NCBI GenBank assembly: GCA_027004185.1
Contig: JALTIG010000286.1
Location: forward strand, 1-45,398
From: a bacterium
Lineage (GTDB): Bacteria > Desulfobacterota > S145-22
Reading direction: 5' to 3'
Length of the DNA stretch: 45,398 nucleotides
Shown: positions 10,169 to 44,140 of the stretch, in pieces
How positions within the stretch are numbered: position 1 is the stretch's first letter
Layout: each line of letters begins with the position of its first letter
The notes under the pieces: model-generated
Seen by the model: the letters and a program-made list of their open reading frames with translations, nothing else
Databases searched by the model: none
What the model was told of the DNA's origin: nothing
Made by a program: the position numbers and the translations under genes

Positions 10169-10915
10169 ATGATGGAAGGACTGGTTCTCCAACTTATTGA
10201 TTACGGCGAATCCGATCAGATCGTCCGTCTCTTTCTTAGAGAAGCGGGGACCCTTTCGGCTATCGCGAAAGGGATCAAAAAAAGTAAGCACCGGTTCCCC
10301 CATCATCTCGAGCCATTCAGAATCTATACATTCAAACTCGATAAAAAACCCACACACGACCTCTACTGGATTATGTCAGCAGATCAGGTTAAGGCATTCG
10401 ATGGAATCATGCGCGATATTCGGAAGATTGCATTAGGCAATGTCATCATGGAGTTTATCCTTAAAGGAATCCGAGAGGAACAACCTCACGTTGAACTTTA
10501 TGGGCTCGTAACTTCCGTTTTCAAGGAACTCGAAGGCTCAGACAATATCTCTACCCTTTGGTTCTATTCGGAGATACATATTATGAAAATGCTGGGTTTT
10601 TTGCCCAACTTTGTCACATGTCTGCAGTGCAAACGTCCCCTCCCAAGGAACGGCCTTAACCGCTTCGATCCGATAAGAGGGGGATTCATTTGTCCAGCTT
10701 GCCAGGTCAGCCCTCTTGGAAAAGGGATTGATATTGGCCCGGAAGCGTTTGCTGCCCTACAATTTATGAAAAAATCTCCCCCTCAAGCGGCATCCCGGTT
10801 GCACCTAACTGGACCTACTCGTGAGGTAATTGCATCATTTCTCGAAAGATTTACCGAATACTACTTAGAACGTTCTATCAAGTCACGCGCTTTCTTGAAA
10901 GAGGTCATAAAATAG
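10169..10915 (+). CDS. recO: DNA repair protein RecO
   Basis: EGLVLQLIDYGESDQIVRLF..AIAKGIKKSK OB fold; zinc site CLQC...CPAC. Confidence 0.9.
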   Translation: MMEGLVLQLIDYGESDQIVRLFLREAGTLSAIAKGIKKSKHRFPHHLEPFRIYTFKLDKKPTHDLYWIMSADQVKAFDGIMRDIRKIALGNVIMEFILKGIREEQPHVELYGLVTSVFKELEGSDNISTLWFYSEIHIMKMLGFLPNFVTCLQCKRPLPRNGLNRFDPIRGGFICPACQVSPLGKGIDIGPEAFAALQFMKKSPPQAASRLHLTGPTREVIASFLERFTEYYLERSIKSRAFLKEVIK

Positions 10916-12275
10916 GAGGCAAAGATTCCAGCGCCTGGCACATTATTTCGTATAGTTGATCAACCCACGTCAAATGTTCCGGTTTCATTAGGCATGACCT
11001 CAAACAGGTTATTGTTTCGGCATCCCTCTCTATCCCCTCGAGAGAGGGTTCAAAAAAGGAAACAGGAAGTTTTGCTAATGCCAGGTGAAGGTTGAATACA
11101 GCGGATTTTTCGAAAAATGCCCTAGAAAATGTGGACATCTCGGAAACGAGGCTGGCCTTTGGGGCGAATATAACGATGTCAAGTTCAGGGCGAAATGCAT
11201 GAATAAATCGTGAATCTAAGTTTAATCTGTCGTAGAGGGAAAGAGCGGCTGCCCGGCACTTCTCTAAAATTTTTGCGAACTCTCCGCCCCTTTCCATAGG
11301 TAATAGGCGTTGCGTCGCCCACAGGGCTGCGGCTGAAGCGCCAGCCCTAGAACACTCTAAGCTGATTTCCCCTAGATGCATTTCATTGGAGCTGAAATAG
11401 GTGTAGGGGGAATCATGTTTGTACAATTTTCCTACCGAGGGATCCTTAAAAATAATGCAGCCGCACCCATAAGGCTGAAGCCCATGTTTATGTGGATCGA
11501 TTGCGATAGAATCAACCTCATGCAGAGAGTTGAATGCCTGGGTAGTTTTTTCATCCAGGTTGCCCACAAGCGTGAAGTATCCCCCGTATGCTGCATCGGC
11601 ATGGATCCTGAAGCCGTACCTCTCTCGGAGCTGTAGGATTTCTCCGAGGGGATCTACGGATCCCGTTGCTGTGGTGCCCATCGTTGCGACCACGGTTCCC
11701 ACTGGCTTCTTCTTCAAAACATCCTCAAGAACGTTCATATCCATATGGCCCTTAGAATCCACAGCAATAGCCTGATAAGGGATCTTAAGAACATGAGTCA
11801 GGCGCTCATGTGTGTAATGTGCCTGCTGGGATGCCACGATAAGCTTTCCTGGTCTCAGAGAGCCTGACACCCACAAAGCCTCCATGTTTGCTATGGTCCC
11901 ACCACCAGTCAGGTGTCCCAGATGGGTTTCCCACCCAAACATCCTGGCGATTTCAGCCACGGCCTCCTTTTCCATATGGGAGCTGGCCCGCCCCCCATCC
12001 AAGGCATGGTTATTGGGATTGATATAGAGCGCAAGCATGTAGGCAAGGCGGGCAACAGGATGTGGTGGTTTAAGCATTTGTCCGGCATAGAGTGGGTGAA
12101 AATAAGGGTAATTATCCCGCATTTTTTCAGCAACTTCCCGGAGTATAGATCTGATGCGCCCTTGATCTGTTTTTGACTCAAATGGAGGAAGGTTTGAGAA
12201 CCCATCCTCTAAGATGGAAAGGGCTTCTTCCAAGAGATAAAGATCCTTATCATTCAAAATCATATCTTTCTCCAT
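10905..12275 (-). CDS. Group II PLP-dependent amino-acid decarboxylase (GadB/MfnA/PanP-like), substrate unknown
   Basis: GHLTGGGTIAN, AHYTH, TMGTTATGSVD, HADAAYGG, and IDPHKHG carrying the PLP lysine. Confidence 0.85.
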   Translation of the reverse strand: MEKDMILNDKDLYLLEEALSILEDGFSNLPPFESKTDQGRIRSILREVAEKMRDNYPYFHPLYAGQMLKPPHPVARLAYMLALYINPNNHALDGGRASSHMEKEAVAEIARMFGWETHLGHLTGGGTIANMEALWVSGSLRPGKLIVASQQAHYTHERLTHVLKIPYQAIAVDSKGHMDMNVLEDVLKKKPVGTVVATMGTTATGSVDPLGEILQLRERYGFRIHADAAYGGYFTLVGNLDEKTTQAFNSLHEVDSIAIDPHKHGLQPYGCGCIIFKDPSVGKLYKHDSPYTYFSSNEMHLGEISLECSRAGASAAALWATQRLLPMERGGEFAKILEKCRAAALSLYDRLNLDSRFIHAFRPELDIVIFAPKASLVSEMSTFSRAFFEKSAVFNLHLALAKLPVSFFEPSLEGIERDAETITCLRSCLMKPEHLTWVDQLYEIMCQALESLPPIL

Positions 12276-20287: not shown

Positions 20288-20316
20288 AAAATATCAAATA
20301 TAAGTGTATATGTCAA
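20288..20316 (-). promoter_or_regulatory. sigma70-type promoter of lexA-umuDC, probably giving a leaderless mRNA
   Basis: Minus strand reads TTGACA, 17 bp, TATTTT, 7 nt, ATG; no Shine-Dalgarno sequence. Confidence 0.6.
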
Positions 20317-20412
20317 GTAAATTGTTCACAAAATCCCCATAACCACCATCTATACATAAGGCAGCGTGGATGAGAGAATTAACGATACTTGAAAAAGAAG
20401 TAAACATGGCGA

Positions 20413-20489
20413 TGGTGGCGGTGCAGGGACTTGAACCCCGGACACTACGGATATGAGCCGTATGCTCTAACCCGCTGAGCTACACCGCC
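20413..20489 (-). tRNA. tRNA-Met(CAT), elongator-like
   Basis: GGCGGTGTAGCTCAGCGGGTTAGAGCATACGG-CTCATAT-CCGTAGTGTCCGGGGTTCAAGTCCCTGCACCGCCACCA; G1-C72 paired and encoded CCA. Confidence 0.95.
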
Positions 20490-20655
20490 ACGATGTATTA
20501 TCCTTTACTTAAAACGGACATACTTGTCAAGACGTGATAGCCTTGTAAGATCCGAAATAAATAACAACCGATAAACAAGACACCGCCACATAAAAAGGAA
20601 ACTGTCGGAGTTGGTGAATCGAGCAAAGATAAACACATGTTAAATCTATAGCTGC

Positions 20656-20684
20656 TTGACAAGGAAGGAATCGCAATCTATTAT
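20656..20684 (+). promoter_or_regulatory. sigma70-type promoter for the CBS/ACT and GlcD-like pair
   Basis: TTGACA (20656-20661), 17 bp, TATTAT (20679-20684); AAGGAG RBS before ATG 20748. Confidence 0.7.
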
Positions 20685-20747
20685 TTAAACAAGTCAAATA
20701 GAATAAGAATAACTGAAAACCAATAACCCCAAAAAAGGAGAAAAGAT

Positions 20748-21395
20748 ATGTCAATGTTGGTTCAAGACTGGATGATAAGGGATGTTATCACTATTGACGC
20801 TCACGCCTCCGTCATCGATGCCGTTCATTTGTTAAAGGAAAAAAATATCGGTCGGCTTCCCGTTTTAAGGAACGGCAAGCTTGTTGGAATCGTAACCGAT
20901 AGGGACTTAAAGGATTTTACCCCCTCTAAGGCAACCACGCTTGATATCTATGAACTTCGTTATCTCCTCTCCAAGGCATCCGTAGAGGAAGCCATGACGC
21001 CTAATCCCGTAACAGTCCCTCCTGATCTTCCCATTGAAAACGTGGCTGCCATCATGCGTGATAAAAAAATAAGGGCGCTCCCTGTTGTGAACAAAGATGG
21101 AGAACTTGTTGGGATTATTACAGAAGCTGAAGTCTTTGAACTCCTGGTTTCTCTTTCAGGCGTGAGACAGGGAGGGATCAGGCTCTGCATGCCTATAGAA
21201 GATAAATCAGGAAGCGCTAAAGAAGTGGCAGACATAATGAGAAGATATGGGGCTAAGATTGAAGCCATTCTCATTAATTATAAAAACGTGGCTCCCGGTT
21301 ATCGAGATCTCATTATTCGTTTCAAGGGAGGGGATACCCAAGCCATCTTGAAGGAAGTTAAGGAAAAATACCCCAACGTACTGATTATCGAATAA
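20748..21395 (+). CDS. AcuB-like CBS-pair + ACT domain protein
   Basis: Two CBS repeats (IGRLPVL..GKLVGIVTDRDLK, PSKATTLDIYEL, LPVV..GELVGIIT) and a C-terminal ACT-like domain. Confidence 0.85.
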   Translation: MSMLVQDWMIRDVITIDAHASVIDAVHLLKEKNIGRLPVLRNGKLVGIVTDRDLKDFTPSKATTLDIYELRYLLSKASVEEAMTPNPVTVPPDLPIENVAAIMRDKKIRALPVVNKDGELVGIITEAEVFELLVSLSGVRQGGIRLCMPIEDKSGSAKEVADIMRRYGAKIEAILINYKNVAPGYRDLIIRFKGGDTQAILKEVKEKYPNVLIIE

Positions 21396-21398
21396 TTT

Positions 21399-22775
21399 AT
21401 GCCCATCCCTGACTCTTTCCTTCAGCGTTTACAAGGGGTGGTGGGTCCAAAACGATTTTCAACCGGGATCTCCAACCTCACGCTTCATTCGAAAGATGAA
21501 TCCTTTCATGCCCCTCACCTCCCTGACGCTGTGGCCTGGCCCAAAAGCACGGGAGAGGTAAGTCAGCTTGTTCGCATCTGCAATGAGGGGAAAATTCCTG
21601 TCACACCTTGGGGAGCAGGTACAAGTCTTGAGGGAAACCCTATCCCAGTCAAGGGTGGTCTAGTGATTGATCTTCAGCAGATGAACAAAATCCTGGAAAT
21701 CCGGGAAGACGATCTCCAGGTCGATGTCCAAGCGGGTGTAGTTTTTAAAGACCTTAACAAAAAGCTCAAACAGTATGGACTCTTTTTTCCACCGGACCCT
21801 GGCGCTTCTGCCACCATCGGGGGGATGGTTGCCAACAATGCCAGTGGTATCCGGGCCATCAAGTACGGTGCCACGAAAGACTTAATACAGCAATTGACTG
21901 TGGTCCTTGCAGATGGGGAAATCATCCGCCCAGGGACCCTCTCCTTCAAAACCTCGTCAGGTCTAGACCTTTGCAGGCTGTTTGCCGGATCTGAGGGGAT
22001 CCTGGGAATTATTACGGAAATCACCCTCCGACTCACAGGGATCCCCCCCGAATTCTTATCCGCGGTAGTTTCATTTGCTACAGCTAAGGAGGCTTCTTCA
22101 ACCATCTCTCAAATTATACGAAGCGGGCTTTCCCCTGCTGCACTTGAGTTTATTGGGAAAGATGCTGTGCGCCTTATCAACAAATACACAGAGGAATTTA
22201 ACTTCCCGGAAGCTCCTCTCGTTTTTGTCGAATTTCATGGCACCAACAGAGAAGGAATGGCTGCTGACCTTGAATTGGTCCGAGAGATATGTGAAGAGAA
22301 TGGGGCTTCGCGTTTCGAAGCCGGCATTGGCCGACAAGCAAGGGCCAAACTTTGGGATGCCAGATATAATCTCCATGATTTCATCTTAAGAGAATACCCG
22401 GGGTTGGAACCTATGGCTATTGACACCGCGGTCCCTATCTCCAAACTTCCAAAGATCGTAGCCTTTGCGGAAGAGTTATGTAAAGAACGAGGGATTATCG
22501 GATATATATTCGGACACGCTGGAAGCGGTAACATCCATATGCCCATGATGGGCAATCCCAACGACAAAGCTACTTGGGCCGTCCTGGAGGAAATTAATCA
22601 TAAGCTGGTTGCGTTTGCCATTTCCCTCGGAGGAACAGCAACGGGGGAGCATGGTGTAGGGATAGGCAAGATGCAATACATGGAATTAGAACATGGGAAC
22701 AGTCTGAAAGTTATGAAAAAGATTAAAAAACTTCTCGATCCCCGGGGAATCCTGAACCCAGGTAAGATGTTTTGA
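21399..22775 (+). CDS. FAD-linked oxidoreductase of the GlcD / D-lactate dehydrogenase family
   Basis: GAGTSLEG, FFPPDPGASATIGGM, GSEGILGIITE, GHAGSGNIH, TGEHGVG, DPRGILNPGK. Confidence 0.9.
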   Translation: MPIPDSFLQRLQGVVGPKRFSTGISNLTLHSKDESFHAPHLPDAVAWPKSTGEVSQLVRICNEGKIPVTPWGAGTSLEGNPIPVKGGLVIDLQQMNKILEIREDDLQVDVQAGVVFKDLNKKLKQYGLFFPPDPGASATIGGMVANNASGIRAIKYGATKDLIQQLTVVLADGEIIRPGTLSFKTSSGLDLCRLFAGSEGILGIITEITLRLTGIPPEFLSAVVSFATAKEASSTISQIIRSGLSPAALEFIGKDAVRLINKYTEEFNFPEAPLVFVEFHGTNREGMAADLELVREICEENGASRFEAGIGRQARAKLWDARYNLHDFILREYPGLEPMAIDTAVPISKLPKIVAFAEELCKERGIIGYIFGHAGSGNIHMPMMGNPNDKATWAVLEEINHKLVAFAISLGGTATGEHGVGIGKMQYMELEHGNSLKVMKKIKKLLDPRGILNPGKMF

Positions 22776-22880
22776 TTAACGTATCCCATCCCTTTTAAAC
22801 ATTTCCCAAATCCTTTATTTCTTGACAATTCACACCCGATTCGTTAGGGATGAAACACAACGATCAGGAGAGAGATAAGC

Positions 22881-24203
22881 ATGCCCGATGAATCTATTAT
22901 TAAGGAAAAGGACCGCTTTCACGAAGCGGAAGGAATTCCTTATGATTCCGCTGTATGTCCAGGATGCGGTTGCCTCTGCGAAGATATCGATTTAACCTTG
23001 AATAATGATCAAATCATCCAGACCTTCCACGTGTGTTCATGGGGCCTTTCAAAATTTCATCTCGGACATCGTTTTTTAAGGGAACCCAAACATGCCAAAC
23101 TTGTCTTTCCCACAAGAAAAGAGGCTTCGGGAAGGCCTCTTCCTATTTCCTACGAAGAAGCCTACGAAACCACCGCTTCCATTCTTCATGATGCCATGCG
23201 GGTAGTTTTCTTCGGTTTATGCCAAACCACTTTCGACGCCCAAATGGAGGCCATCACTCTAGTGAATCATTTGAACGCGGACCTTTATCCTTCTGAAGGG
23301 ATGCTACTAACCCCATATTTCAAGGCATTGAAAACTCAGACCACTGGAATGGCAACCCTTGAAGAAATCCGACAGCTTGCCACAACCCTTATATTCTGGG
23401 GGGTTAATCCTCTCCATAGCTGTCCCCGCCTGGTGGCCCGATACGCCGTATTTGTCGGGGGTATTAACGCGCCTGAACGACATATGGGCCGTAAGGTTTT
23501 CTATATTGATCCTTACGAAAACGACACAGGATCCTTTTCACAACACATTCCTGTAACTCCCGAGAATGAACTAAACATGGCCAACAAACTCACTGAGATC
23601 ATCGAAGAAGGTAGCTTTTCTATCCCAACAGAGCTGAATCTGCTCGTCCAAAGCATCGAGACAAGCCCATTCGTGGGGCTTTTTGTTGGCAGAGGGATCG
23701 CATATTCTCACACTCCGCAGGAACTTATGGAAACCCTTTTTAAGCTGAGAAACGCTATCAACAAAAAAACCCCATGCGTGCTCCTTCCCGTCATTTCTGA
23801 CTTTAACGCCTTGGGTCTCTATTTTTCAATGATCCAAAATGGAATCGATCCCTCAACCTCCCCATACATTAAGGGAGACCTTTTGTCCTACCATCCGAAA
23901 AGAGGAGATGCTATTATTTGTATAGGATCAGACCCCTTCTGGTTCCTTAAGGAAGAACAGATCACAGCCATTAAATCCCTTGATATCCCTATAGTAGCCA
24001 TTTCCTCCCTTCAGAACCAGACAACCCATGCTGCCACCATCGTTATCCCCGTAGCCCTTACAGGAGTCGAAACCGAAGGGTTAGCGTTCCGTATGGATGG
24101 AATCCCTATCTACATGAGAAAGGTTCTACCTACCGCACAACCAACTGATCTAAATGCCTTGAAAGCCATTAAGGAAAGGATTGGGGGAAAAGCAAATGGC
24201 TGA
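22881..24203 (+). CDS. Formylmethanofuran dehydrogenase subunit B (FwdB/FmdB/FhcB)-like protein, apparently lacking the W/Mo ligand
   Basis: CPGCGCLCEDI...CSWG Fe-S motif, ATLEEIR..ATTLIFWGVNPLHSCPRLVARY and IPVALTGVETEGLAFRMDGIPI are FwdB-like; AGGAG RBS. Confidence 0.8.
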   Translation: MPDESIIKEKDRFHEAEGIPYDSAVCPGCGCLCEDIDLTLNNDQIIQTFHVCSWGLSKFHLGHRFLREPKHAKLVFPTRKEASGRPLPISYEEAYETTASILHDAMRVVFFGLCQTTFDAQMEAITLVNHLNADLYPSEGMLLTPYFKALKTQTTGMATLEEIRQLATTLIFWGVNPLHSCPRLVARYAVFVGGINAPERHMGRKVFYIDPYENDTGSFSQHIPVTPENELNMANKLTEIIEEGSFSIPTELNLLVQSIETSPFVGLFVGRGIAYSHTPQELMETLFKLRNAINKKTPCVLLPVISDFNALGLYFSMIQNGIDPSTSPYIKGDLLSYHPKRGDAIICIGSDPFWFLKEEQITAIKSLDIPIVAISSLQNQTTHAATIVIPVALTGVETEGLAFRMDGIPIYMRKVLPTAQPTDLNALKAIKERIGGKANG

Positions 24204-24660
24204 GATGAAGGTTCTTGATATCTATCGCCTGCTCCCTCGCACCAATTGCAGAAAATGCGGCATGGTTTGTATGGCCTTCGCCTCGGCACTCCTGACGGGC
24301 AAGGCCAAACCTGAAGATTGCCCCCCCCTGGTTGAGGATGAAAAATATGCCGAAGCCTACCAAAAGCTTCAGGAGGCCTTCGGTAAAACAGGTGAACGAG
24401 AGGCAACTGGCCTGAGTATCGACCGGAATAAATGCGACGGGTGTGGCATTTGTGCCGCAGTCTGCGAAATCAGCCTTGAAAAGAGCCAGGAACTCACCAA
24501 TGGGAAAGGTTCCCGCCGCTTTGAATCACCCGTCATTATTATTGTGAATGGAGTTATCACTATTAAAAATCCGGACGCGTGTAGAAGAGTTGTCCCTGAT
24601 GCTCCTACCTGTAATGCTTGCGTAGACCTCTGTCCTTCAAAAGCCCTGACATTTCTCTAA
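24196..24660 (+). CDS. FwdG-like ferredoxin with an N-terminal AcsC/RnfB-type Fe-S domain
   Basis: LPRTNCRKCGMVCMAFA...DCPPL Fe-S domain, then CDGCGICAAVC...GKG...VNGV...C..CNACVDLCP (two [4Fe-4S] motifs in FwdG arrangement). Overlaps the fwdB-like stop. Confidence 0.75.
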   Translation: MAEMKVLDIYRLLPRTNCRKCGMVCMAFASALLTGKAKPEDCPPLVEDEKYAEAYQKLQEAFGKTGEREATGLSIDRNKCDGCGICAAVCEISLEKSQELTNGKGSRRFESPVIIIVNGVITIKNPDACRRVVPDAPTCNACVDLCPSKALTFL

Positions 24661-24672
24661 GGATCGATACCC

Positions 24673-26043
24673 ATGAGACTTCTCATCAAGAATGCTACGA
24701 TCTTTGACCCATTAAACGGGATACAGGGTCAACCTGGTAACCTTTATATCCGTAACGGGCGCATGTCAAAACCCTTTAAAAATCCGGATCAGGTAATCGA
24801 TGCCACCGGTCTTTGGGCACTTCCTGGAGGGATCGATGCTGGAAGCGCTTTCACCTCCTATGGCATATCTCTTTACGGTTTCCAGCAAGGGTTATCCATC
24901 TACCCGGCATCCCTTAGTGCCTCCTATGCCCTCATGGGATACACGCACCTTCATGAATCCATGATGTTTCCAACAACAGCTCTGGAGACTCACCGCTTTC
25001 TCACCGCTCTCCCCTACCAGGACGGCTCAGCATCCCTATGCCTGTCATTACGAGAATTTGGATCCCTGATAGGGTCTGATACCCCTCCTGAATGGACTGT
25101 TCTTTTCCTCGATCTATGCGCCCAGCGTTTTCACGCCCTAAACATTCACCTTTTAGAAACAAGCGTTCACTTCAGGGAAAGCGCTCTTTCCCGTTTTAAT
25201 ATCCAGGCAAGTAAGGTCCTCCGTTATATCGAGAGGTTACCCCTAAACCTTCCCTTTCTTATCGAGACAACATCGCGACTCTTGGATGAGGAACTTCCGG
25301 GAACACCAAACCTCTATTATAGCCATATCGGCCAGGCCATCGACGGTAAATACGCCTATAAGCAAATAATCACCCATATGACTTCAAAAGGGATGTCCGG
25401 TGACCTTGGCCTTATCCCACCCTTCCCACATCACCAGCTCCAGATAACGTCTGAGTTAACCGAAGGGGAGCACCTGGTAGCCCATATAGGGCTCCACGCA
25501 CCCCTGAAATACCTGAAGGTCTCACCACCCGCGTCACAAATTCCCCTTATACTAAATTTCGCCACTCACCCAGAGTTCAAAAAAAACCTGGCCTTCTCCA
25601 CACTTTGCCTTGGGTCTCAGGCAATCGACTGCTATCCAGTACTGTTTCAACAACTCTTTGAAAACGATCACTCATTTACGGTAGAAGATTTTGTTTACCA
25701 GACTCGTCTCGTGCCCGCTTCTTTATTGGGCCTAAAAGATAAGGGACATCTGGGAATTGGTGCCATCGGGGACGTGGCCCTTTACGACCCGAATAAAGGC
25801 CAATCTCCAGGAGAAGTTCTCAGTCACTGCCACACTCTGATCAAAGGAGGTACTCCTGTAATAGAAGAGGGGGTTTTCGCCCATGCCCCAGAACACCCTG
25901 AGACACAAACCTATTTCCGAAGCCATTCTCCCACTGAAAAAGGTTTCGCAATATTTACCACCTATTTCAGGGCATACCCCAGACTTGAGCATCTTCATGT
26001 GCCAGAAACGATGGGGGTTTGGAAATCCATTCCTATTGAATAG
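24673..26043 (+). CDS. Formylmethanofuran dehydrogenase subunit A (FwdA/FhcA)-like amidohydrolase-fold protein with a degenerate active site
   Basis: LLIKNATIFDPLNGIQG, IDATG..ALPGGID, YALMGYT and TRLVPASLLGLKDKGHLGIGAIGDVALYD match the FwdA ends; HxH motif absent. Confidence 0.75.
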   Translation: MRLLIKNATIFDPLNGIQGQPGNLYIRNGRMSKPFKNPDQVIDATGLWALPGGIDAGSAFTSYGISLYGFQQGLSIYPASLSASYALMGYTHLHESMMFPTTALETHRFLTALPYQDGSASLCLSLREFGSLIGSDTPPEWTVLFLDLCAQRFHALNIHLLETSVHFRESALSRFNIQASKVLRYIERLPLNLPFLIETTSRLLDEELPGTPNLYYSHIGQAIDGKYAYKQIITHMTSKGMSGDLGLIPPFPHHQLQITSELTEGEHLVAHIGLHAPLKYLKVSPPASQIPLILNFATHPEFKKNLAFSTLCLGSQAIDCYPVLFQQLFENDHSFTVEDFVYQTRLVPASLLGLKDKGHLGIGAIGDVALYDPNKGQSPGEVLSHCHTLIKGGTPVIEEGVFAHAPEHPETQTYFRSHSPTEKGFAIFTTYFRAYPRLEHLHVPETMGVWKSIPIE

Positions 26044-26104
26044 CCTACGTGCTCACCTCCCAAAAACAGGGAAACAATGAATATCTCTGTTCACAGGAGT
26101 AAAC

Positions 26105-26779
26105 TTACATTGACAAGGGCAACTCTTCATCAGCAATGACCACTTGTGCATTCCCCCTTTTTGCCCACCAGACCCCAAGATAAACAAATGGGGTATCCAA
26201 AATTGCAAAGACAAACTTGAAAAGATACTGCCCTCCAATCAAACGGAGACAGTCCGAAAAACCATATACACCGTAAAAGGCAATCATGATAAAAAGAACT
26301 GTATCTATGAGTTGCGAAGTCATGGTAGCAAGGTTGTTGCGAATCCAGAGGTAACGTGCATTTGTTACGTTTCTCCAGAAATGAAACAACGCAACATCAC
26401 ATGTCTGGCTTGCAAGATACGCGGTTAAGGAGGCAAGGATAATTCGTGTAGAGGCACTAAAAACCGTCTTAAAGGCCTGCTGGTGTCTATAAAACCGTGC
26501 GGGTGGAAGCCAAATGGCCACTTTCGTGATAAAAAGCAACAACAGCATCATGACAAGGCCAAGCCAAACCACATGCTTGGAAAACCTCTTTCCAAAGACC
26601 TCCGAAACCACGTCGGTAACCATGAAGGTAACTGGATAGACAATGATTCCGGCAGGGGCAGAAAAACCAAATAGGGTAATAATCTTTGAGGAAATTACAT
26701 TGGCTGCCGCGAGAGCAAGGACAAACATTGCCGCCAGAACAGCATATTTATCTTCCCTTGACAGATGCATCGCCATCAC
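26105..26779 (-). CDS. yhhQ: Queuosine precursor transporter (YhhQ/Vut_1 family)
   Basis: ANVISSKI, YPVTFMVTDVVSEVFG, RIILASLTAYLASQ, LWIRNNLATMTSQLIDTVLF, LDTPFVY; adjacent to queF. Confidence 0.92.
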   Translation of the reverse strand: MMAMHLSREDKYAVLAAMFVLALAAANVISSKIITLFGFSAPAGIIVYPVTFMVTDVVSEVFGKRFSKHVVWLGLVMMLLLLFITKVAIWLPPARFYRHQQAFKTVFSASTRIILASLTAYLASQTCDVALFHFWRNVTNARYLWIRNNLATMTSQLIDTVLFIMIAFYGVYGFSDCLRLIGGQYLFKFVFAILDTPFVYLGVWWAKRGNAQVVIADEELPLSM

Positions 26780-33904: not shown

Positions 33905-34768
33905 CTAAACCCTGCCAAGAACCGGAAAGGGATCCACAATAACCTTCTCCAAGCCGACATCCTGCATTGTAGCGCCAAAGGCAAGTCCCATTAGCTGGCT
34001 AAAATAAAGGATTGGCATGTCGTAAAAGGTCCCAAACTTGTTTCCTATATCTTTCTGACGAAGGTCAAGGTTCGATTGGCAGAGGGGACATGCCACTGCC
34101 ACACAGTCAGCCCCGGCATCTTTTGCCCCCTCTAAAATCTTATTTGTAAGGTAAAGTGCAGCATCAGTCTCCACCAGGCTCATACTCACACCGCAACAGT
34201 CGGTCTTGAAGGACCAATCGACTGTTTCCGCTCCTACAGCACGCATCAAGTCATCCATACTGTGAGGATTTTCCACATCGTCAAATTGGGCTATATGGGG
34301 AGGGCGTGTCAAGAGACACCCGTAATAACAGGCAACTCTCAACCCCTTAAGGGGTTCAACTACTGCTTCCTTTATCTTGTCTATTCCCACGTCATTCAGA
34401 AAAACATCCAGAATATTTCTGACGCGCACACTTCCATGGTATGGCGCTTCCAAAACCTTCTCAACATCTCTCTTCAGCTCCTCATCTTTGTCCATTTCCA
34501 TACTGGCTACCTTTAAACGGGTCAAACAAGAGACACAGGGGGCGATGACCTGGTGAAGCCCCATCGCCTCTGTTTGAATCAGTGCCTTGGCAGGAAGCGC
34601 AATGGACAATAGGTGAGACGTGGCGTGTGCGGAAGACGCTCCACAACATATCCAGTCTGGAATTTCCATAAGCTCCACCCCTGTAAACTGGCAGCAGGCA
34701 CGAATAGATAGATCATATTCCTTTGCAGAAGACTCTAATGAACAACCAGGATAATAGGCGTATCTCAT
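33905..34768 (-). CDS. hdrB: Heterodisulfide reductase subunit B (copy 2)
   Basis: Two CCG domains: YPGCSL...WICCGA...PCVSC and YYGCLL...DCCG...ACPLCQ. Confidence 0.93.
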   Translation of the reverse strand: MRYAYYPGCSLESSAKEYDLSIRACCQFTGVELMEIPDWICCGASSAHATSHLLSIALPAKALIQTEAMGLHQVIAPCVSCLTRLKVASMEMDKDEELKRDVEKVLEAPYHGSVRVRNILDVFLNDVGIDKIKEAVVEPLKGLRVACYYGCLLTRPPHIAQFDDVENPHSMDDLMRAVGAETVDWSFKTDCCGVSMSLVETDAALYLTNKILEGAKDAGADCVAVACPLCQSNLDLRQKDIGNKFGTFYDMPILYFSQLMGLAFGATMQDVGLEKVIVDPFPVLGRV

Positions 34769-35328
34769 GTGCGTGACTCCTCAAGTTTCTTTACATTCTC
34801 AAAAAGTTTCTTCACGGAATTTAGATCCTTCACCCTATCAGGTAACAACTTCAATTTCCCCTTAGAAAGCATGACAGGTCCCAAGTCCGCATCTTTCAAG
34901 GGATTACTCAAGGCAAAATTCAGATCCATGGCAAAGCCAATTTCATAAAGACGCCCATAGGTTTCTACGGAACGGAGAAAAACCTCGTGAAATGCCTTAA
35001 TGGATTCAAGCGGGATATGATATCCTTCTTTGAAAGCCATTTCACGCAACGCATCCATCACCTCAACAATCTCAATCCCCTGAGGGCAACGCGTTGCACA
35101 CGTCTCACAAGAGACACACCACCACATGGTGTCCGCCGATAAAACCTCATCACGTAGCCCCAGTTGGACGGTCCGCATCATCTCACTGACTTTCATCTCC
35201 ATCCTGAAAGCCATGGGACACCCCATGGTACACTTTCTGCATTGATAACAGGTCAAGAGATCCTGCCCACACAACTCCTTGAGCTCTTTTGAAAAAGACG
35301 TCGTATCACTCTTTATCACAACTTTCAT
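34765..35328 (-). CDS. hdrC: Heterodisulfide reductase subunit C (copy 2)
   Basis: CYQCRKCTMGCP and WWCVSCETCATRCPQ; coupled to hdrB. Confidence 0.92.
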   Translation of the reverse strand: MKVVIKSDTTSFSKELKELCGQDLLTCYQCRKCTMGCPMAFRMEMKVSEMMRTVQLGLRDEVLSADTMWWCVSCETCATRCPQGIEIVEVMDALREMAFKEGYHIPLESIKAFHEVFLRSVETYGRLYEIGFAMDLNFALSNPLKDADLGPVMLSKGKLKLLPDRVKDLNSVKKLFENVKKLEESRT

Positions 35329-35361
35329 AACGTTCCATTTCCTCCCCGCTGATTCAGTAAT

Positions 35362-36855
35362 CTAATTCTCCAAGATAAAGGGAAGTTTCACAGTAAAATG
35401 CGTCCCCTGATTTTCAACACTCTTAACATCAATCGTCCCTAAATGGGCATCCACCACTTGCTTCACAATCGAAAGACCAAGCCCAGTTCCCACGATCTGG
35501 CGTGTTTTTTCTGTCTTAACCCTGTAAAACCGCTCAAAAATTCTTGGAAGATCCTTTTCTGAAATCCCGATCCCTGTATCTTCCACATCAATCCGTATAT
35601 AATCTCCTTCCTTCATTCCAGTGACCTTCACCATCCCCCCCTCTGGAGTATACTTAATAGCATTACTAATCAAATTGGTAAAGACACCTTCCATATTTGC
35701 TGCATCCGCATTAACGGACGGAAGCCCATTCTCTATTTCAAATTCCAGCGTCAGGCCCTTTTGCTCCGCCTGGGGGCGCATCAAATCCACCACTTTCGTG
35801 AGCAAACCCCCTATGTCCACAGGCTCCATATATTGCACTTGCATGCCTGCCTCTATCTTGGAAAGATCAAGCAGATCCTTCACCAAATCCAATAAGCCCT
35901 TGGCCCGTTCCTTGGCCCGCCTCAGCATGCGCGCCTGCCGCTCGTTGATCTCCCCTGCAAGTCCCTTGAGAATCACTGTTAGCTGCTGCTCGATCGCCGC
36001 TACTGGCGCCCTCAGCTCATGCGTAACCATAGCAACAAAATCCGCCTTCATTCTCTCAAGTTCCTTCAATTGGGTAATATCCTGAAGGACCATAACGCCT
36101 CCTAGCAGATCTCCCTTTTCATCTCGGACGGGAACAGCATGGCAACGAAGAAAGACCCCCTTCTCACCAGACCTTACCTGGATCTCACGGCTCACTCCAG
36201 AAAGGCTTTCTACTTCCCTTTCAAGAACATCCATGATGATTTCAGAAAGGGCTTCCACCTCAATCTCGTCCACAGGTTTCCCGATCACGTCCTCCGCGGC
36301 CACAGAAAGGAAACGTGTGGCCGCAGGGTTTAACAGGGCAACAGATCTGTCTTTATCCACCACAAGTACCCCATCCGTCATGCTGTTAATAATCGTATGG
36401 GTCTTGCTTTTCTCCTTCGCCACATCCTTCAAGCTCTTTTCGGCCTCTTCCCTTAACCGCTTGGTTTCCTCTTCAAGGGCCTTCTTCTCAAGAGCCCGAT
36501 GGACAACAATCCTAAGTTGGTCTGGGGTAAACGGCTTTGGAATAAAATCATAAGCCCCTTTTTTCATTGCCTCCACCGCTGTATCTACTGTAGCATACCC
36601 CGTCACCACGATGACGAGCAACGAAGGCGCTATCTCCCTGACATGTTCCAACACCTCCATACCGCTCATCCCCGGCATCATCAAATCAAGGAGCATCACG
36701 TCAAACGTGTTCGGTGATTCCCTGACCAGGTCAAGCCCAGTCTCCCCATTTTCCGCAGTGACAACCTCTATATCTTCCTTGGTCAGTATCCGGCTACTGC
36801 CATCACGCATAATGGCTTCATCGTCTATGACGATGATTTTTGGTTTACGATTCAC
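35362..36855 (-). CDS. Cytoplasmic hybrid sensor histidine kinase (REC-PAS-HisKA-HATPase)
   Basis: REC domain IDDE..LDLMMPG..GAYDFIPKPF, PAS INSMTDGVLVVD, H-box VTHELRAP, NLISNAIKY, DTGIG, GTGLGL; no TM segments. Confidence 0.93.
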   Translation of the reverse strand: MNRKPKIIVIDDEAIMRDGSSRILTKEDIEVVTAENGETGLDLVRESPNTFDVMLLDLMMPGMSGMEVLEHVREIAPSLLVIVVTGYATVDTAVEAMKKGAYDFIPKPFTPDQLRIVVHRALEKKALEEETKRLREEAEKSLKDVAKEKSKTHTIINSMTDGVLVVDKDRSVALLNPAATRFLSVAAEDVIGKPVDEIEVEALSEIIMDVLEREVESLSGVSREIQVRSGEKGVFLRCHAVPVRDEKGDLLGGVMVLQDITQLKELERMKADFVAMVTHELRAPVAAIEQQLTVILKGLAGEINERQARMLRRAKERAKGLLDLVKDLLDLSKIEAGMQVQYMEPVDIGGLLTKVVDLMRPQAEQKGLTLEFEIENGLPSVNADAANMEGVFTNLISNAIKYTPEGGMVKVTGMKEGDYIRIDVEDTGIGISEKDLPRIFERFYRVKTEKTRQIVGTGLGLSIVKQVVDAHLGTIDVKSVENQGTHFTVKLPFILEN

Positions 36856-36885
36856 ACTTTCTCCCAGTGTATAGAAACCATCTCC

Positions 36886-37266
36886 CTACTTTGCAAGAAG
36901 CATTTCTATCCTATTGACCAGTTCTTCAGGTTCCACAGGTTTGTCCATATAATCTTCTGCTTCGGTTTCAAGTCCCATCTGTGGGGTATATTTCGTTGAT
37001 GTAATGTGAGAAACCACAGCGGTAAGAAGTAGGATCGGGATGTTTTTGAGCTCTGAATCCGCTTTGAGTTCCTTAGCAACCGCATAGCCATCTTTATCCG
37101 GCATCATAACATCCAAAACGATTAGATCTGGATTCTCGGTTCTAGCCTTCTCCAACCCTTCAATCCCTCCATAAGCAGCCGCGACGTCATACCCCTTGCT
37201 TTCCAGGATCATCGTCACCGCTTCAACGAGATCAGGATCATCATCAACAATCAATATCTTTGCCAT
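36886..37266 (-). CDS. Single-domain response regulator (REC)
   Basis: ILIVDDDPD, LDVMMP, LLTA, KPV; AAGGAGG RBS. Confidence 0.93.
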   Translation of the reverse strand: MAKILIVDDDPDLVEAVTMILESKGYDVAAAYGGIEGLEKARTENPDLIVLDVMMPDKDGYAVAKELKADSELKNIPILLLTAVVSHITSTKYTPQMGLETEAEDYMDKPVEPEELVNRIEMLLAK

Positions 37267-37292: not shown

Positions 37293-38216
37293 TTATACTT
37301 GTGGACGGGGATATAAACCAGCTCCTTTGATAATCTCAGGCACCTTTTCCTCCCATTCTATGGCCATGATGTGTACCCCCCTGACCCCTTCTATTTCTTT
37401 CAGCCTTTGTATTGTCTCAATACAAATCTTAATCCCCTCTTCAGCCCGCTTCTCTTTGGGAACTCCCTTCAGCCGGTCAATAATCTCGTCGGGGACATCC
37501 ATCCCAGGAACCATATTTTTCATATACTTGGCCATTCCCACCGATTTCATGGGGGTCACGCCCCCAAGGATATAAACCTTCTCATGAAGCCCCCGATCCC
37601 GAACCCCCTTCATCCATTCTTCAAACTTGTCCACGTTGTAGATACATTGGGTTTGAATAAAATCCACCCCCGCGTTGACTTTCTTCGCCAAACGAGGAAC
37701 CCGTATTTCAAACGGATCCGCGAAGGGATTACAGGCCGCCCCGATAAAAAGCTTCGGTACCCCTTTAATCTCTTCCCCTTCAATGAATTTTCCTTCATCC
37801 CGCATAGCCTTTACTGAATGTATCAATTGGATGGAATCCATGTCATAGACATTTTTTGCTTTTGGGTGGTCACCAAATACCTGATGATCCCCGGATAAGC
37901 AAAGGATATTGTTGATACCGAGAGCAGCTGCCCCTAAGATGTCACTTTGTATGGCAATCCGGTTCCGATCCCGCGTCACCATCTGCAAAACAGGATCGAG
38001 ACCCATCCCCTTTAGGATGAAGCAGGAAGCGGCACTCGACATCCTAACCACGGAGGTTTGATTATCCGTGACATTAACCGCATCCACTACATCCCTCAAA
38101 AGCTCACCTTTCTTTCGGATTACCTCCGCATCCGCACCTCTTGGAGGTCCACATTCCGAAGTAACCGCAAATTCACCTTTTTCAAGAACTTTCTCAAGGC
38201 GGCTGGACGATTTCAT
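37293..38216 (-). CDS. metF: Methylenetetrahydrofolate reductase catalytic subunit
   Basis: ECGPPRG, NVTDN, RDRNRIAIQSD, LSGDH, GVDFIQTQ, GVHIMA. Confidence 0.93.
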   Translation of the reverse strand: MKSSSRLEKVLEKGEFAVTSECGPPRGADAEVIRKKGELLRDVVDAVNVTDNQTSVVRMSSAASCFILKGMGLDPVLQMVTRDRNRIAIQSDILGAAALGINNILCLSGDHQVFGDHPKAKNVYDMDSIQLIHSVKAMRDEGKFIEGEEIKGVPKLFIGAACNPFADPFEIRVPRLAKKVNAGVDFIQTQCIYNVDKFEEWMKGVRDRGLHEKVYILGGVTPMKSVGMAKYMKNMVPGMDVPDEIIDRLKGVPKEKRAEEGIKICIETIQRLKEIEGVRGVHIMAIEWEEKVPEIIKGAGLYPRPQV

Positions 38217-38881
38217 AATCTTAAATCCTCCCTCACGACCTTTCTCGGTCCCCCATCACGGCTGGTGGACCAATCCTTGATGGGAATGTATTCCTCAAAC
38301 CTCTCAAGTTGCCCCAATGACTTTAGTCTATCTATGATGAGCTGCCATCCACAATCAATCTCCTTATTGACCTCACACTTTCCGTTGGACGATCCCCCGC
38401 AGGGTCCATTCAAAAGGCTCTTGGAACATCGAGTAACGGGACATATCCCACCCGTCAAATGGAGGATACAATCCCCACAGGCCTGGCAGCGCTCCGTCCA
38501 AAGTCCCTGTTCCTCTGTAACCCCGATAAACGTGGTATTAATAGCGGGAAAAACGGGAGTTTCCGGGTAAGCTTCGGCCACAAATTGAACTCCTGCTCCG
38601 CAAGCCATGGACAGAATAGCCTCATAATTGGGAACCATGGACCGAATCTGCTCAATATACTCATGATCACACTGGCGCTCCAGGGTAAACTCCAAAATAT
38701 CAATGGCACGGCCCTTTTGTTTGCGTAAGAGCCGTAGCTCCGAGGCCAAAATGCCTACCTCCTTTTCACCCCCGACAGAGCACACAGTCACACATTCCCT
38801 GCATCCCAAGACGATGATCTTTTCGAAAGGATCGATCATGGCCTCGATCTCCTCCATTGGTTTCCTCTCACCTACAATCAT
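38213..38881 (-). CDS. metV: MetV, the Fe-S/Zn partner of MetF
   Basis: GCRECVTVC, RQC, ACGAG, ERCQACGDC..TGGICPVTRCSKSLLNGPCGG..GKCEV...CGW; coupled to metF. Confidence 0.9.
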   Translation of the reverse strand: MIVGERKPMEEIEAMIDPFEKIIVLGCRECVTVCSVGGEKEVGILASELRLLRKQKGRAIDILEFTLERQCDHEYIEQIRSMVPNYEAILSMACGAGVQFVAEAYPETPVFPAINTTFIGVTEEQGLWTERCQACGDCILHLTGGICPVTRCSKSLLNGPCGGSSNGKCEVNKEIDCGWQLIIDRLKSLGQLERFEEYIPIKDWSTSRDGGPRKVVREDLRL

Positions 38882-39324
38882 GACACATCCCCATCCTTCT
38901 TTTGTTTTGGTTGCTTGAGAGGGCTTGGCCCAAGTTTCTTAATCTTTTCCACCATTTCCCTTGCCACAGCTGCAAAACGAGGTCCCATGGCCGCCGACAT
39001 ATTGTACATCTCCAACCTGTCCCCACCAAAACCGATTTCATCTAGGAGCTTTTTTGCATGCTGGACCCGTTTTTTCGCTCTGAAATTCCCGTTAATAAAA
39101 TGACAATCCCCTTCCATACACCCGGCCACATAAACCCCATCCGCACCATCCTCAAAGGCCTTAAGTAGATGCAAAACGTCCACTTTTCCCGTGCATGGAA
39201 GCCGGATAATTCGCACATTCGGTGGATACTGGAGGCGCATGGAACCCGCCAGGTCAGCAGCGGTATACGCACAGTAATGGCAACAAAATGCAACGATTTT
39301 TGGTTCAAACATCTCTTCACTCAT
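38878..39324 (-). CDS. mvhD: MvhD-type [2Fe-2S] subunit
   Basis: FEPKIVAFCCHYCAYTAADLAG, PCTGKV, GADGV, GCMEGDCHFINGN. Confidence 0.93.
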   Translation of the reverse strand: MSEEMFEPKIVAFCCHYCAYTAADLAGSMRLQYPPNVRIIRLPCTGKVDVLHLLKAFEDGADGVYVAGCMEGDCHFINGNFRAKKRVQHAKKLLDEIGFGGDRLEMYNMSAAMGPRFAAVAREMVEKIKKLGPSPLKQPKQKKDGDVS

Positions 39325-42300
39325 CAGGCTGCCACCTCACTCTTGTCATACAGGGCATCACATTTTGCAATCACCTGAACATCCCTGAAGTATTGAAGTT
39401 GAATGGCTTTACCCGGACATTCTGCTGCACAGACTCCACACCCGTGACATTTTATCGGGTCAATCTCCGCTTTCCCTCTCTCGTTTATAACCGGAACTGA
39501 ATAGGGACACGCCCGCACACAAGTGAGACAGGCCGCGCACTTATCCTCATCCACAACCGCTACCACTCCCCCAACAGAGATAAAATCCTTGGCCAGGATC
39601 GTCCCTGCCCGTGCAGCGGCCGCAGCCGCCTGAGCGATCGATTCCGAAATATTCTTTGGAGAATGTGCCGTCCCGCAAACATAAATCCCGTCCGTAGCAA
39701 AATCCACAGGACGCAATTTCATATGCGCCTCCAGGAAAAAGCCATCTGTCATCCGAGGCACCTTCAACATCAAGGCAAGTTCCTCATTCTCTCTCGGAAT
39801 TGTCGCGGAGGAAAGAACCAGTGAATCTGGATAGATGGTGATTTTACGCTTTATAATGGGCTCAAAAAACTGAACGGAGAGCCGCCCATCCTCCTCGCTG
39901 ACCTCTGGCTTGCTCTCTGGACTGTAACGGACAAAGAGAATGCCCCTTCTACGTGCTTCTCGGTAGTAGGGTTCCATCAACCCATAGGTTCGTATATCTC
40001 TGTACAGAATCACCACCTGGGCGTCCGGATTCTTATCCTTGAGTCTCAAGGCATTTTTAATGGCCGTCGAGCAACAGACCCGACTACAGTATGGGCGTTC
40101 CTCATTACGCGATCCTACGCACTGAATCATGACCACGGTATTCTGACCCAGGGCAAACTGAGGCTCCCTAACCAGGGATCTCTCAAATTCAAGTTGAGTC
40201 ATAACATGTTCATTTCTCCCATAGAGATACTCATCAGGTTTGAGTTCCTCACCACCCGTCGCGACAATAACAACCCCATGTTCCAGTTTTCGATAATACA
40301 TCCCAGGTGCCACCATGATGCCCGTACTGAAATTGCCCTGTGTCCCGGAAAAATCAACGATCAAGGCATTGGTGATCACATGAATATTCTTATCCGCCTT
40401 AACCTCTTCAATCGTTTTATAAAGGAGTGACTGAACATCTTCACCCTCAATGGTAAAATAAATATTTCTTATGTTTCCACCTAATTGCGGCTCTTTCTCA
40501 ACAAGGTATACCTCATAGCCCTGCTCAGAAAGCCTCAAGGCAGCCGTCATTCCAGCAATTCCTCCCCCAATGACCAGCCCCTTCTTAATAATGGGCAGAT
40601 TCTTCTCATGAAGGGGGATTAGCTCACGTGCACTGGCCACAGCCATTCGAACAAGATCTTTCGCCTTTTCCGTTGATTCGGAATGCATATGCATATGAAC
40701 CCAGGAGCATTGATCCCGAATGTTTGCCATCTCAAAAAGGTACTTATTCAAACCCGCCTGACGTATGGTCGCTTGGAAAAGAGGTTCATGAGTTCTGGGG
40801 GAACAGGAAGCTACTACAACTCTGTTCAAACGATGCTCCTTGATCCTTTCCTTGATGCGATCCTGCGTATCCTGAGAACAGGTAAAAAGGTTATCTTCCG
40901 CATAGGCGACATTCGGGAGGGTCTTAGCATAATCCCGAACAGCGGGCACATCTACCACCGACCCAATATTAACGCCACAGTGACAGACAAAGACCCCGAT
41001 CCTGGGCTCCTGTCCCTCAACATCGAGCTCCTCTGGAAGTTCTTCTCTTACCAGTTCTGTCCCCCTTGCATCCGCCAAAAGCCCAGCCGCATATGCCACG
41101 GCACTACTTGCTTGAGACACCGTCTCAGGGATATCTTTGGGTCCTTGAAAGGCACCACAAACAAACACCCCGGGGCGCGACGTAGAAACCGGAGTAAATG
41201 GATGGGTGCGACAAAACCCATAACTATTCATCTCGACAGATATTCTCTGAGAGAGCTTCACCGCTTCACGGGATGGCTCCAAGCCCACGGAAAGAACAAC
41301 CATATGGAAGGTTTCATTCTTTAAAGACCCATCTTCCCCCTGATAGGTCAGAACGAGATCGTGGGTAACAGGATCCTCTGTCACCCGAGAGATCATAGAA
41401 CGGATATATTTCACACCGAACTGGCTCTGAGCCCGCTCATAGTAGGCATCAAACCCCTTTCCAAAGGCTCGAATATCCATATAGAAAATGGTAGTCTCGA
41501 TACCTTGGAGGTGTTCCTTTGCAATAATTGCCTCTTTTGTGGCATACATGCAGCAAACCGAGGAACAGTACGGATGGTCTGTATCCCGGCTCCCTACACA
41601 CTGGATAAAGGCGATTTTCTGCGGGATGTCCCCATCCGAAGGCCGCATAACGGTGCTGCTATACGGCCCCGTGGCGCTAAGCATACGTTCAAACTCGATC
41701 GAGGAAACCACGTTGGGGAAACGTCCATAGCCATACTCCCCTTTCTTCATCGGATCGTATTCATCAAAACCCGGGGACAGGATCACAGCTCCCACGCGGA
41801 CATTTTCTACCTTCGGGGGGATCGTATAATCGATCGCCTCCGCTTCGCAAACATCGGCACAGATCCCGCATCCCAAGCACCGGCGACAACTTAGGCAACG
41901 CTTCGCTTCCCTGACAGCCATCTCCTCGGTGAAACCAAGTTGAACCTCATCAAAAGTTTTGATCCGTTCTTTTACCTCAATCTCCGGCATGGAAACCCTC
42001 GGTTCCTGTTCTATCCCTTCACGCACATCCTCAACAGGGAAGAAAACCTCCTCTAATTCTCGCCCCGCCTTGAGATCTTCCCCCTTCAGATAGCGTTCGA
42101 TGGAAACTGCAGCCCGTTTCCCCGCTGCCATGGCATCGATTGCCATGGCCGGTCCTGTCACCAGGTCTCCACCAGCGAATACGCCAGGAAGGTTCGTTTC
42201 GAGGGTTAAAGCGTCAACCTGTGGCAACCCCCGACGTGTGAGCTTAAACCCAAGGGATTCAAGCAACGACATATCGGTCCGCTGACCGATGGCCGGGATT

Positions 42301-44137: not shown

Positions 44138-44140
44138 GCA

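Follow-up and report, generated by a model that had tools for sequence, protein, structure and literature searches.

What would a bacterium do with three subunits of formylmethanofuran dehydrogenase (Fwd) that have lost the residues on which both reactions of the enzyme depend? Fwd catalyses the entry step of CO2 fixation in archaea, and the question is raised by three adjacent genes resembling fwdB, fwdG and fwdA (hereafter the B-like, G-like and A-like genes, together the trio) that lie in a window of 45,398 nucleotides, positions 1 to 45,398 of contig JALTIG010000286.1 (assembly GCA_027004185.1), from an uncultured, sulfate-reducer-type bacterium of the Desulfobacterota lineage S145-22. The original prediction, made from this DNA alone, took the trio for an intact operon with two catalytically dead subunits that had been repurposed rather than left to decay. 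In our alignments both canonical active sites are gone, and the conserved cysteines suffice for four [4Fe-4S] clusters, of which the B-like protein would hold one and the G-like protein three. We therefore favour, with a probability of about one half, the reading that the trio forms a heterotrimer derived from Fwd subunits B, G and A, which would carry out neither Fwd reaction and would serve Hdr-type complexes as an Fe-S scaffold without catalytic function, or as an electron wire. The trio is a member of an undescribed family of short Fwd-like modules in bacteria and archaea.

Loss of both canonical active sites and retention of the Fe-S cysteines

The B-like protein matched the NCBIfam model of FwdB (TIGR03129) with 229.8 bits, under the cut-off of 327.8; its sole other NCBIfam match was a weak one to NuoG (TIGR01973), and no Pfam match was found. 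Its alignment with M. wolfeii FwdB (5T5I_B, E 1.4e-40) covered the full length, and four other FwdB/FmdB chains were matched as well. In its AlphaFold2 (AF2) model (pLDDT 82.3), FwdB chains were the best Foldseek matches (TMq 0.80–0.83), ahead of the NuoG/75-kDa subunits of complex I, which lack the cofactor (TMq 0.58–0.68), and then of formate dehydrogenases. FhcB (6S6Y) was absent both from the PDB sequence matches at E <= 0.01 and from the 50 best fold matches. PMC6926001 gives Cys118 (Cys or Sec, the W/Mo ligand), His119 and Arg288 as the residues on which catalysis by FwdB depends. The HMMER alignment places Leu142, Leu143 and Ile305 of the B-like protein at these positions, in line with the eroded B site that had been predicted, and the Cys-His pair occurs in 0 of the 48 B-like sequences of the family (the window and 47 loci). 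Neither the catalytic residues nor a curated NCBIfam score thus places the protein within FwdB. The N-terminal [4Fe-4S] cysteines C26, C29, C33 and C52 are retained together with C31, and the N-terminal Fe-S cysteines are kept in 51 out of 51 aligned sequences.

The A-like protein matched the NCBIfam model of FwdA (TIGR03121) with 97.2 bits (cut-off 392.75) and PF07969 with 27.0 bits (cut-off 29.7), FwdA and FhcA chains at about 1e-15 in the PDB sequence search, and only unnamed 'amidohydrolase family' clusters in the Protein Atlas. With 456 residues compared to about 569 in FwdA, it is about 110 residues shorter. Its AF2 model (pLDDT 91.8) has the amidohydrolase TIM-barrel fold: FwdA and FhcA were matched by Foldseek at TMq 0.80–0.85, and dihydroorotases, hydantoinases and metal-less CRMPs at about 0.5. 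Canonical FwdA holds a binuclear metal site made of four His, one Asp and a carboxy-Lys, according to PMC6926001 and PMC11656701. We mapped these ligands by profile-profile alignment (hhalign) of the A-like family with 19 canonical FwdA/FhcA sequences, which gave a probability of 100% and 451 aligned columns. The first and second His of the HxH motif correspond to Gly57 and Ala59 of the window, the carboxy-Lys to His159 and the Asp to Leu311; the beta5 His falls in a gap and the beta6 His is kept as His218. One out of the six metal ligands is therefore left, and the protein has neither the metal site nor the family score of FwdA. The A site is thus as eroded as it had looked, with five of the six ligands gone, and ligands at shifted positions, which could have explained the impression away, were not seen in the profile-profile alignment.

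The G-like protein combines two Fe-S parts. Residues 7–50 match PF04060, the [4Fe-4S] domain of the CFeSP gamma subunit and RnfB (E 1.4e-11), and residues 71–151 match FwdG of 5T5I (5t5i_G, E 1.1e-9). The latter part is a FwdG-type 2x[4Fe-4S] ferredoxin by its eight Cys, its two CxxCxxCxxxC-type motifs and its similarity to FwdG, with the first Cys of the second motif lying 9 residues further off; its cysteines are conserved in 54 of 54 sequences. The protein has 12 Cys in total, sufficient for three [4Fe-4S] clusters, and these are conserved in 53–54 of 54 relatives; the relatives have a length of 154 aa, with ATG or GTG as the start codon. Retention of the Fe-S ligands in both B and G, part of the first description of the locus, is thereby borne out across the family, and profile, PDB sequence and fold matches agree on the resemblance of the trio to FwdB, FwdG and FwdA.

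Selection on the trio and its wider family

Identity within the clade of the window is graded, from 89–97% in the G-like through 61–77% in the B-like to 52–88% in the A-like proteins. The electron wire, one of several roles that had been offered, fits this G-like identity and the 16 perfectly conserved Fe-S cysteines. The NG86 estimates of synonymous divergence (dS) were saturated in every B-like pair that included the window and in four of the five window pairs each for the G-like and A-like genes. The sole clearly unsaturated pair, L013 and L014, gave ratios of nonsynonymous to synonymous divergence (dN/dS) of 0.07 for the A-like and 0.02 for the G-like gene, and the B-like pairs with finite dS gave 0.09–0.13. 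Reading frames were intact in the window and in all clade relatives read, except for the B-like gene of L013.

Among 5.8 billion proteins we found 19 relatives of the A-like protein (52–67% identity) and 16 of the B-like protein (57–74% identity). Against 1.84 billion representative proteins, the number of matches to the B-like protein rose from only 19 at E <= 1e-30 through 282 at E <= 1e-10 to 655 at E <= 1e-3; the B-like family is small. The A-like gene was present in 7 out of 8 other genomes of the same family (GTDB species), the genome without it being 78% complete, and in just 1 out of 32 other sampled families of the phylum. The trio is under purifying selection, is family-wide in its lineage and has evolved as a unit. 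The distribution, the dN/dS values of 0.02–0.13 where dS was finite and the recurrence of the same ligand losses, in all five aligned clade relatives and in a 35-member sister clade, uphold the view of a selected, repurposed module free of frameshifts over that of a pseudogene.

We scanned 185,579 species genomes for this family and obtained 91 matching stretches, 82 of which encoded relatives; 80 loci were kept and assigned to four groups by clustering of open reading frames (ORFs), Pfam scans and trees. The short FwdA-like family was monophyletic with respect to canonical FwdA/FhcA (SH-aLRT 100). The family-wide alignment covers five of the six ligand columns; the stretch with the beta5 His was gapped by MAFFT in all 70 members. 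The clade of the window (group i) comprises the window and 6 loci with the gene order B-G-A and with Gly / x / Arg (His in the window) / Leu at the ligand positions. The BAG clade (group ii) comprises 43 loci from Desulfobaccales, Syntrophobacterales, Desulfobacterales and other Thermodesulfobacteriota, with the order B-(cyclophilin)-A-G-HdrC-like-double HdrA-like (about 1015 aa)-DUF3795-polyferredoxin. Of the 30 BAG loci whose downstream flank reached 5 kb or more, 29 had the double HdrA-like gene; among all 43, HdrC-like genes were present in 31, DUF3795 in 18 and polyferredoxin in 15. Their commonest ligand columns are Arg-x-Gln / Arg / Ala (18 of 35 aligned rows), with variants in the rest.

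The other two groups keep most of the metal site. The GBA clade (group iii) consists of 10 bacterial loci (L016, L024, L027, L029, L034, L035, L039, L049, L079 and L088) with the order (polyferredoxin)-HdrA-HdrA-G-B-A. HdrA was present in 5 of the 6 GBA loci with adequate upstream flank, and 4 of the 8 adequately flanked downstream carried a CdhA-like alpha subunit of CO dehydrogenase (about 830 aa) and a 155-aa ORF that had no Pfam match. In this clade, 7 of 9 A-like sequences retain the HxH, Lys, His and Asp and the other two retain most of them, and GBA members have a His at window position 198; the GBA loci may encode an undescribed Hdr-linked C1 enzyme. Finally, 21 loci of archaeal solo genes (group iv) came from ANME-1/Methanophagales and some Methanosarcinales (L018–L023, L026, L028, L030, L037, L038, L040, L050, L052, L053, L057, L061, L063, L073, L082 and L084). 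These A-like genes often lie beside a pheT-like gene and have HxH, Lys, His and Asp mostly intact; no B-like or G-like neighbour was detected by BLAST at 1e-5.

Groups i and ii were sisters in both the A-like and the B-like tree (SH-aLRT 99 and 98, respectively), with group iii outside. Because the two trees agree and all B-like proteins of groups i–iii lack the Cys-His pair, the most parsimonious history would have two steps: B was disarmed before the bacterial groups diversified, and groups i and ii inherited a single loss of the A site from their common ancestor. The trees behind it were quick ones; the branch leading to the clade of the window is long (1.4 substitutions per site), and the program flagged long-branch attraction as a possibility.

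Predicted complex, proposed role and rival explanations

The B-like and A-like proteins were predicted to form a complex with ipSAE 0.92 in each of three runs, compared to 0.00 for the best of three controls; the ipSAE mark is reached by 58 of 80 solved complexes and by 2 of 110 mismatched pairs. The runs agreed in at least 91% of contacts, the partner pLDDT was 91, and the interface comprised residues 147–166 and 294–323 of the B-like and 63–108 and 262–277 of the A-like protein. Because FwdAB complexes have already been solved, the model may be drawing on memory, and its score speaks for likeness to FwdAB rather than for proven binding.

In the scaffold reading, the B-like/A-like pair would form a non-catalytic structural core, comparable to FhcB, to NuoG and to an archaeal Hdr-associated Molybdop protein, and this core would hold an electron wire of four clusters. 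The CFeSP-gamma/RnfB-type domain of the G-like protein would provide docking and the entry cluster, and the module would plug into one of the many HdrA-type flavoprotein complexes of the organism, passing low-potential electrons. We infer the HdrA-type partner from the linkage of the sister clades to hdrA in cis and from the Hdr inventory of the genome: the source metagenome-assembled genome (MAG; 2.32 Mb, 95.8% complete, 6.65% contamination) has HdrA-like genes on at least 8 contigs, the window included, a polyferredoxin-HdrA pair on another contig (C89), and in the window itself the two groups of Hdr-type genes given below.

No FwdA or FwdB above cut-off was found in this MAG, where the top matches were the window's own genes, and FwdC (TIGR03122), Ftr/FhcD (TIGR03119), Mch (TIGR03120) and MfnB (PF04476) gave 0 matches. 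The FwdD-type domain PF01568 occurred only in Fdh-like proteins, in a NuoG fragment within a nuo cluster and in one unlinked small ORF. The organism thus has no methanofuran/tetrahydromethanopterin (H4MPT) pathway in its assembly; absence from a MAG is never proof, yet a whole pathway missing at 95.8% completeness argues against methanofuran chemistry. The suggestion that the trio might be the regulatory partner of a functional Fwd elsewhere in the genome finds no support on the same counts.

Several observations weigh against the scaffold reading. The predicted B/A interface is no more conserved than the rest of the proteins (0.68 vs 0.72 in the A-like and 0.78 vs 0.77 in the B-like). hdrA is adjacent to the trio in 0 of the 7 loci of the window's clade (the window and its 6 relatives), and the neighbours upstream vary, being CBS and GlcD-like genes in the window and a multihaem cytochrome gene in L011, L013 and L015. 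In L013 (3580–4708) two overlapping frames, of 181 aa and 291 aa, stand in place of a single B-like gene, owing either to a real lesion or frameshift or to an assembly error. Of 28 positions with near-invariant residues among the FwdB relatives that bear Cys-His, the B-like protein also retains 20 (GBA and BAG 23), and several of these belong to what we take to be pterin-dinucleotide-binding motifs. Because so many of these positions remain, loss of the cofactor is something we infer, from the absent ligand and the absent FwdD cap, rather than a demonstrated fact. Finally, His94, Ser121 and Trp450 of the A-like protein are invariant in both ligand-less clades (6/6 and 35/35) and differ in the ligand-keeping clades, where position 94 is Asn (9/9 and 20/20). 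They adjoin the family-wide His92, Glu95 and His107, their rise coincides with the loss of the metal site, and they could mark a new functional site.

The retained FwdB positions and the clade-specific residues speak for the most serious rival, which we hold to be possible and distinctly less probable than a scaffold: the wire would feed a new active site in the B-like/A-like cavity of a neo-functionalised enzyme whose substrate would be neither CO2 nor formyl-methanofuran, and this site could be a pterin held without a protein ligand or a cluster-, thiol- or His-based centre. A wire that ends at the B-like cluster, beside the former W site, would presumably be pointless without an acceptor. 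The catalytic faces of the two proteins meet in the predicted complex, an Arg (His in the window) occupies the carboxy-lysine position and Arg-x-Gln replaces HxH in the BAG clade, and the A-like gene is under purifying selection. Yet no FwdD-type cap lies nearby, the only small PF01568 frames being the NuoG piece and the unlinked ORF, the three polar catalytic residues of B have become Leu, Leu and Ile, the A-like protein is the least conserved of the three, and no conserved substrate-related gene adjoins the trio. In its boldest form, a new active redox enzyme with a ligand-less inter-subunit site and an unknown substrate, this explanation is unlikely. Its candidate site might consist of His92/His94/Glu95, Ser121, Arg/His159 and His218, or of a pterin without protein ligand. 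If true, the family would represent unrecognised bacterial electron-bifurcation-driven reductases of C1 or small molecules, derived from the archaeal Hdr-Fwd supercomplex.

The gene context may be read in a different way as well. The trio could be the output module of the adjacent GlcD-like FAD dehydrogenase (21399–22775), in place of a missing GlcF/HdrD-type Fe-S subunit and with the CBS protein as regulator: the genes share a strand across a gap of 105 nt, the best promoter-like site lies upstream of the CBS gene, no glcE or glcF stands beside the GlcD-like gene, and GlcD is found about 2.6 kb or less upstream in both adequately flanked relatives (L013 and L015). In these same relatives, however, a divergent multihaem cytochrome gene (plus PilZ in L015) separates GlcD from the trio, GlcD is missing from the neighbour clusters that recur among the 53 loci of the BAG and GBA clades, and the unrelated downstream queT and queF are equally syntenic, because of which synteny says little on function in the window's family. 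We regard this explanation as improbable. Pseudoenzymes often turn into regulators, and the metal-less dihydropyrimidinase homologues (CRMPs) among the fold matches of the A-like protein would suit a signalling pseudoenzyme that senses redox state or a C1 metabolite. Such a role is very unlikely for the trio, given that no subunit has a DNA-binding or signalling domain and that four Fe-S clusters, together with the HdrA linkage of the sister clades, point to bulk electron transfer. Least credible of all, and largely refuted, is a decaying remnant or an accessory of a canonical Fwd encoded elsewhere. Scores under every family cut-off, the split gene of L013 and an incomplete and partly contaminated MAG could be cited for it; the intact frames in the window and in the other relatives read, the low dN/dS, the presence of the A-like gene in nearly all other family genomes and the lack of canonical FwdA/B/C, Ftr, Mch and MfnB in the genome stand against it.

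Locus organisation, genomic neighbours and comparison with known systems

The features of the trio are listed in Table 1. As first described, the three frames are tightly packed and uninterrupted: the B-like stop and the G-like start overlap (ATGGCTGA) and the G-like and A-like genes are spaced by 12 nt, and this overlap and short gap suggest that the genes are translationally coupled. The TTGACA box and the AGGAG ribosome-binding site that had been pointed out are both present, but the former found no support as a promoter. It had no acceptable -10 partner in a consensus scan of 20300–26400, and the 7 promoter-like sites found there, TTGACA not among them, compare with 7.9 expected by chance in shuffles; on these grounds a promoter of the trio is unproven. 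The top site, at 20656 (11/12 matches), lies 5' of the CBS gene, for which reason co-transcription of the trio with the CBS and GlcD-like genes is possible on this evidence.

Table 1. Positions of the trio and of associated signals in the window.
Feature	Position	Strand	Remarks
FwdB-like gene	22881..24203	+	440 aa, uninterrupted ORF
FwdG-like ferredoxin gene	24196..24660	+	154 aa from ATG; 159 aa if TTG at 24181
Short FwdA-like gene	24673..26043	+	456 aa, uninterrupted ORF
TTGACA hexamer, possible -35 box	22822..22827	+	promoter function unproven
AGGAG ribosome-binding site of the B-like gene	22866..22870	+	10 nt 5' of ATG at 22881
A-like residues 92-95, 121 and 450	~24946-24957, 25033-25035, 26020-26022		include His94, Ser121 and Trp450 of the ligand-less clades

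The neighbours of the trio are genes for CBS, GlcD-like, QueT, QueF and MurJ proteins, and fwdC, fwdD and ftr are indeed missing beside it, as had been noted. Directly upstream of the trio, three relatives carry a divergent gene for a multihaem cytochrome c of about 418 aa (L011:153–1971, L013:1266–3158 and L015:2989–4813) that is absent in the window. A PilZ gene accompanies the cytochrome in L011 and L015, the equivalent small ORF of L013 has no Pfam match, and the window lacks the pair. Between 16272 and 20316 the window encodes a LysR regulator of the selenium-metabolism-associated type, which scored over its cut-off at 274.7 bits, as well as a TonB-like protein and a UmuC-like polymerase, the last together with a LexA/UmuD-like gene.

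Other Hdr-type genes lie in the same window and genome, among them HdrC-HdrA on contig C29. Positions 37293–45019 (minus strand) hold genes for an HdrB-like protein, an ArsR-type regulator, a 1477-aa NfnB/GltD-like-HdrA fusion, MvhD, a MetV-like protein (DUF5981) and MetF, a cluster with the appearance of a Wood-Ljungdahl methylene-tetrahydrofolate reductase coupled to Hdr. An HdrB-like/HdrC-like pair (33905–35328, minus strand) stands directly 3' of a PAS histidine kinase and a response regulator (region 33905–37266). On a short contig of the MAG (C62:420–4363), an Fdh-like MopB gene with an in-frame TGA, likely encoding selenocysteine, lies beside HdrA-like and HdrC-like genes. Finally, a pyridoxal-phosphate decarboxylase is encoded at 10905–12275 (minus strand) of the window, and its best NCBIfam match was MfnA, the tyrosine decarboxylase of methanofuran synthesis (144.4 bits, cut-off 299.4). 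We rejected it as a sign of methanofuran synthesis, as it scores below cut-off and MfnB is absent from the MAG; therefore it is probably an aspartate or tyrosine decarboxylase with another role.

Our full-text searches, which covered main texts, returned no paper that describes a Fwd-like B/G/A module in bacteria or a FwdA without its ligands. The claim that the trio is not a described system holds for these searches, with close analogues published in FhcB and in the Cys118-less Molybdop protein of PMC12054007. The wider unnamed family, from Thermodesulfobacteriota to ANME-1-type archaea, carries the same module with HdrA flavoproteins, polyferredoxins and sometimes a CO dehydrogenase subunit, and forms a natural series: A active and B dead, both dead with hdrA in cis, and both dead with hdrA unlinked. 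This series could show how catalytic subunits become electron-transfer scaffolds, and it may reveal the wiring of many Hdr-type bifurcating complexes in sulfate reducers and syntrophs. It also calls for caution with the labels 'formylmethanofuran dehydrogenase subunit A' and 'B' in bacterial MAGs, which should not count as evidence for methanofuran-dependent C1 metabolism.

The closest known system is Fwd itself, the FwdABCDFG complex of M. wolfeii (5T5I). Like it, the trio has a full-length B subunit related to FwdB with the N-terminal [4Fe-4S] motif kept, an A subunit of the FwdA fold, a G-like protein whose C-terminal half resembles FwdG, and a predicted B/A interface resembling that of FwdAB. 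Unlike it, the trio lacks Cys118, His119, Arg288 and five of the six Zn ligands, comes without FwdC, FwdD, FwdF and the methanofuran/H4MPT genes, and has the shortened A-like protein and an extra Fe-S domain in the G-like one. The methylotroph derivative of Fwd, FhcABCD (6S6Y), likewise has a disarmed B, FhcB being a cofactor-less scaffold according to PMC6926001. However, FhcA is active with all six ligands, which the A-like protein has lost, FhcB has no N-terminal Fe-S domain, which the B-like protein keeps, and Fhc has C and D (Ftr) and no G, whereas the trio has G and neither C nor D. The trio thus shows neither the active FhcA site nor the Fe-S-less FhcB nor the FhcC and FhcD that characterise Fhc.

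Two further analogues come from outside the Fwd complexes. In archaeal type II HdrA-MvhD-FdhB clusters, PMC12054007 describes a Molybdop (FdhA-like) protein with a Cys118-less MopB fold as a proposed Fe-S-positioning scaffold, of a lineage near FdhG/FhcB. The B-like protein resembles it in lacking a Cys118 equivalent, and the trio's sister clades, too, have hdrA in their gene clusters; the Molybdop protein is, however, archaeal and of a different MopB lineage, it has no FwdA-like or FwdG-like partner, and the clade of the window has no hdrA linkage. NuoG, the 75-kDa subunit of complex I, offers another cofactor-less MopB domain with Fe-S clusters in an electron-transfer arm, but it is fused to a ferredoxin/hydrogenase-like N-terminus within complex I, and the trio has no homologous context. 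The known Fwd-derived or analogous cases (Fhc and the Hdr-associated Molybdop protein) each disarm one part, whereas the trio keeps three subunits with both centres lost.

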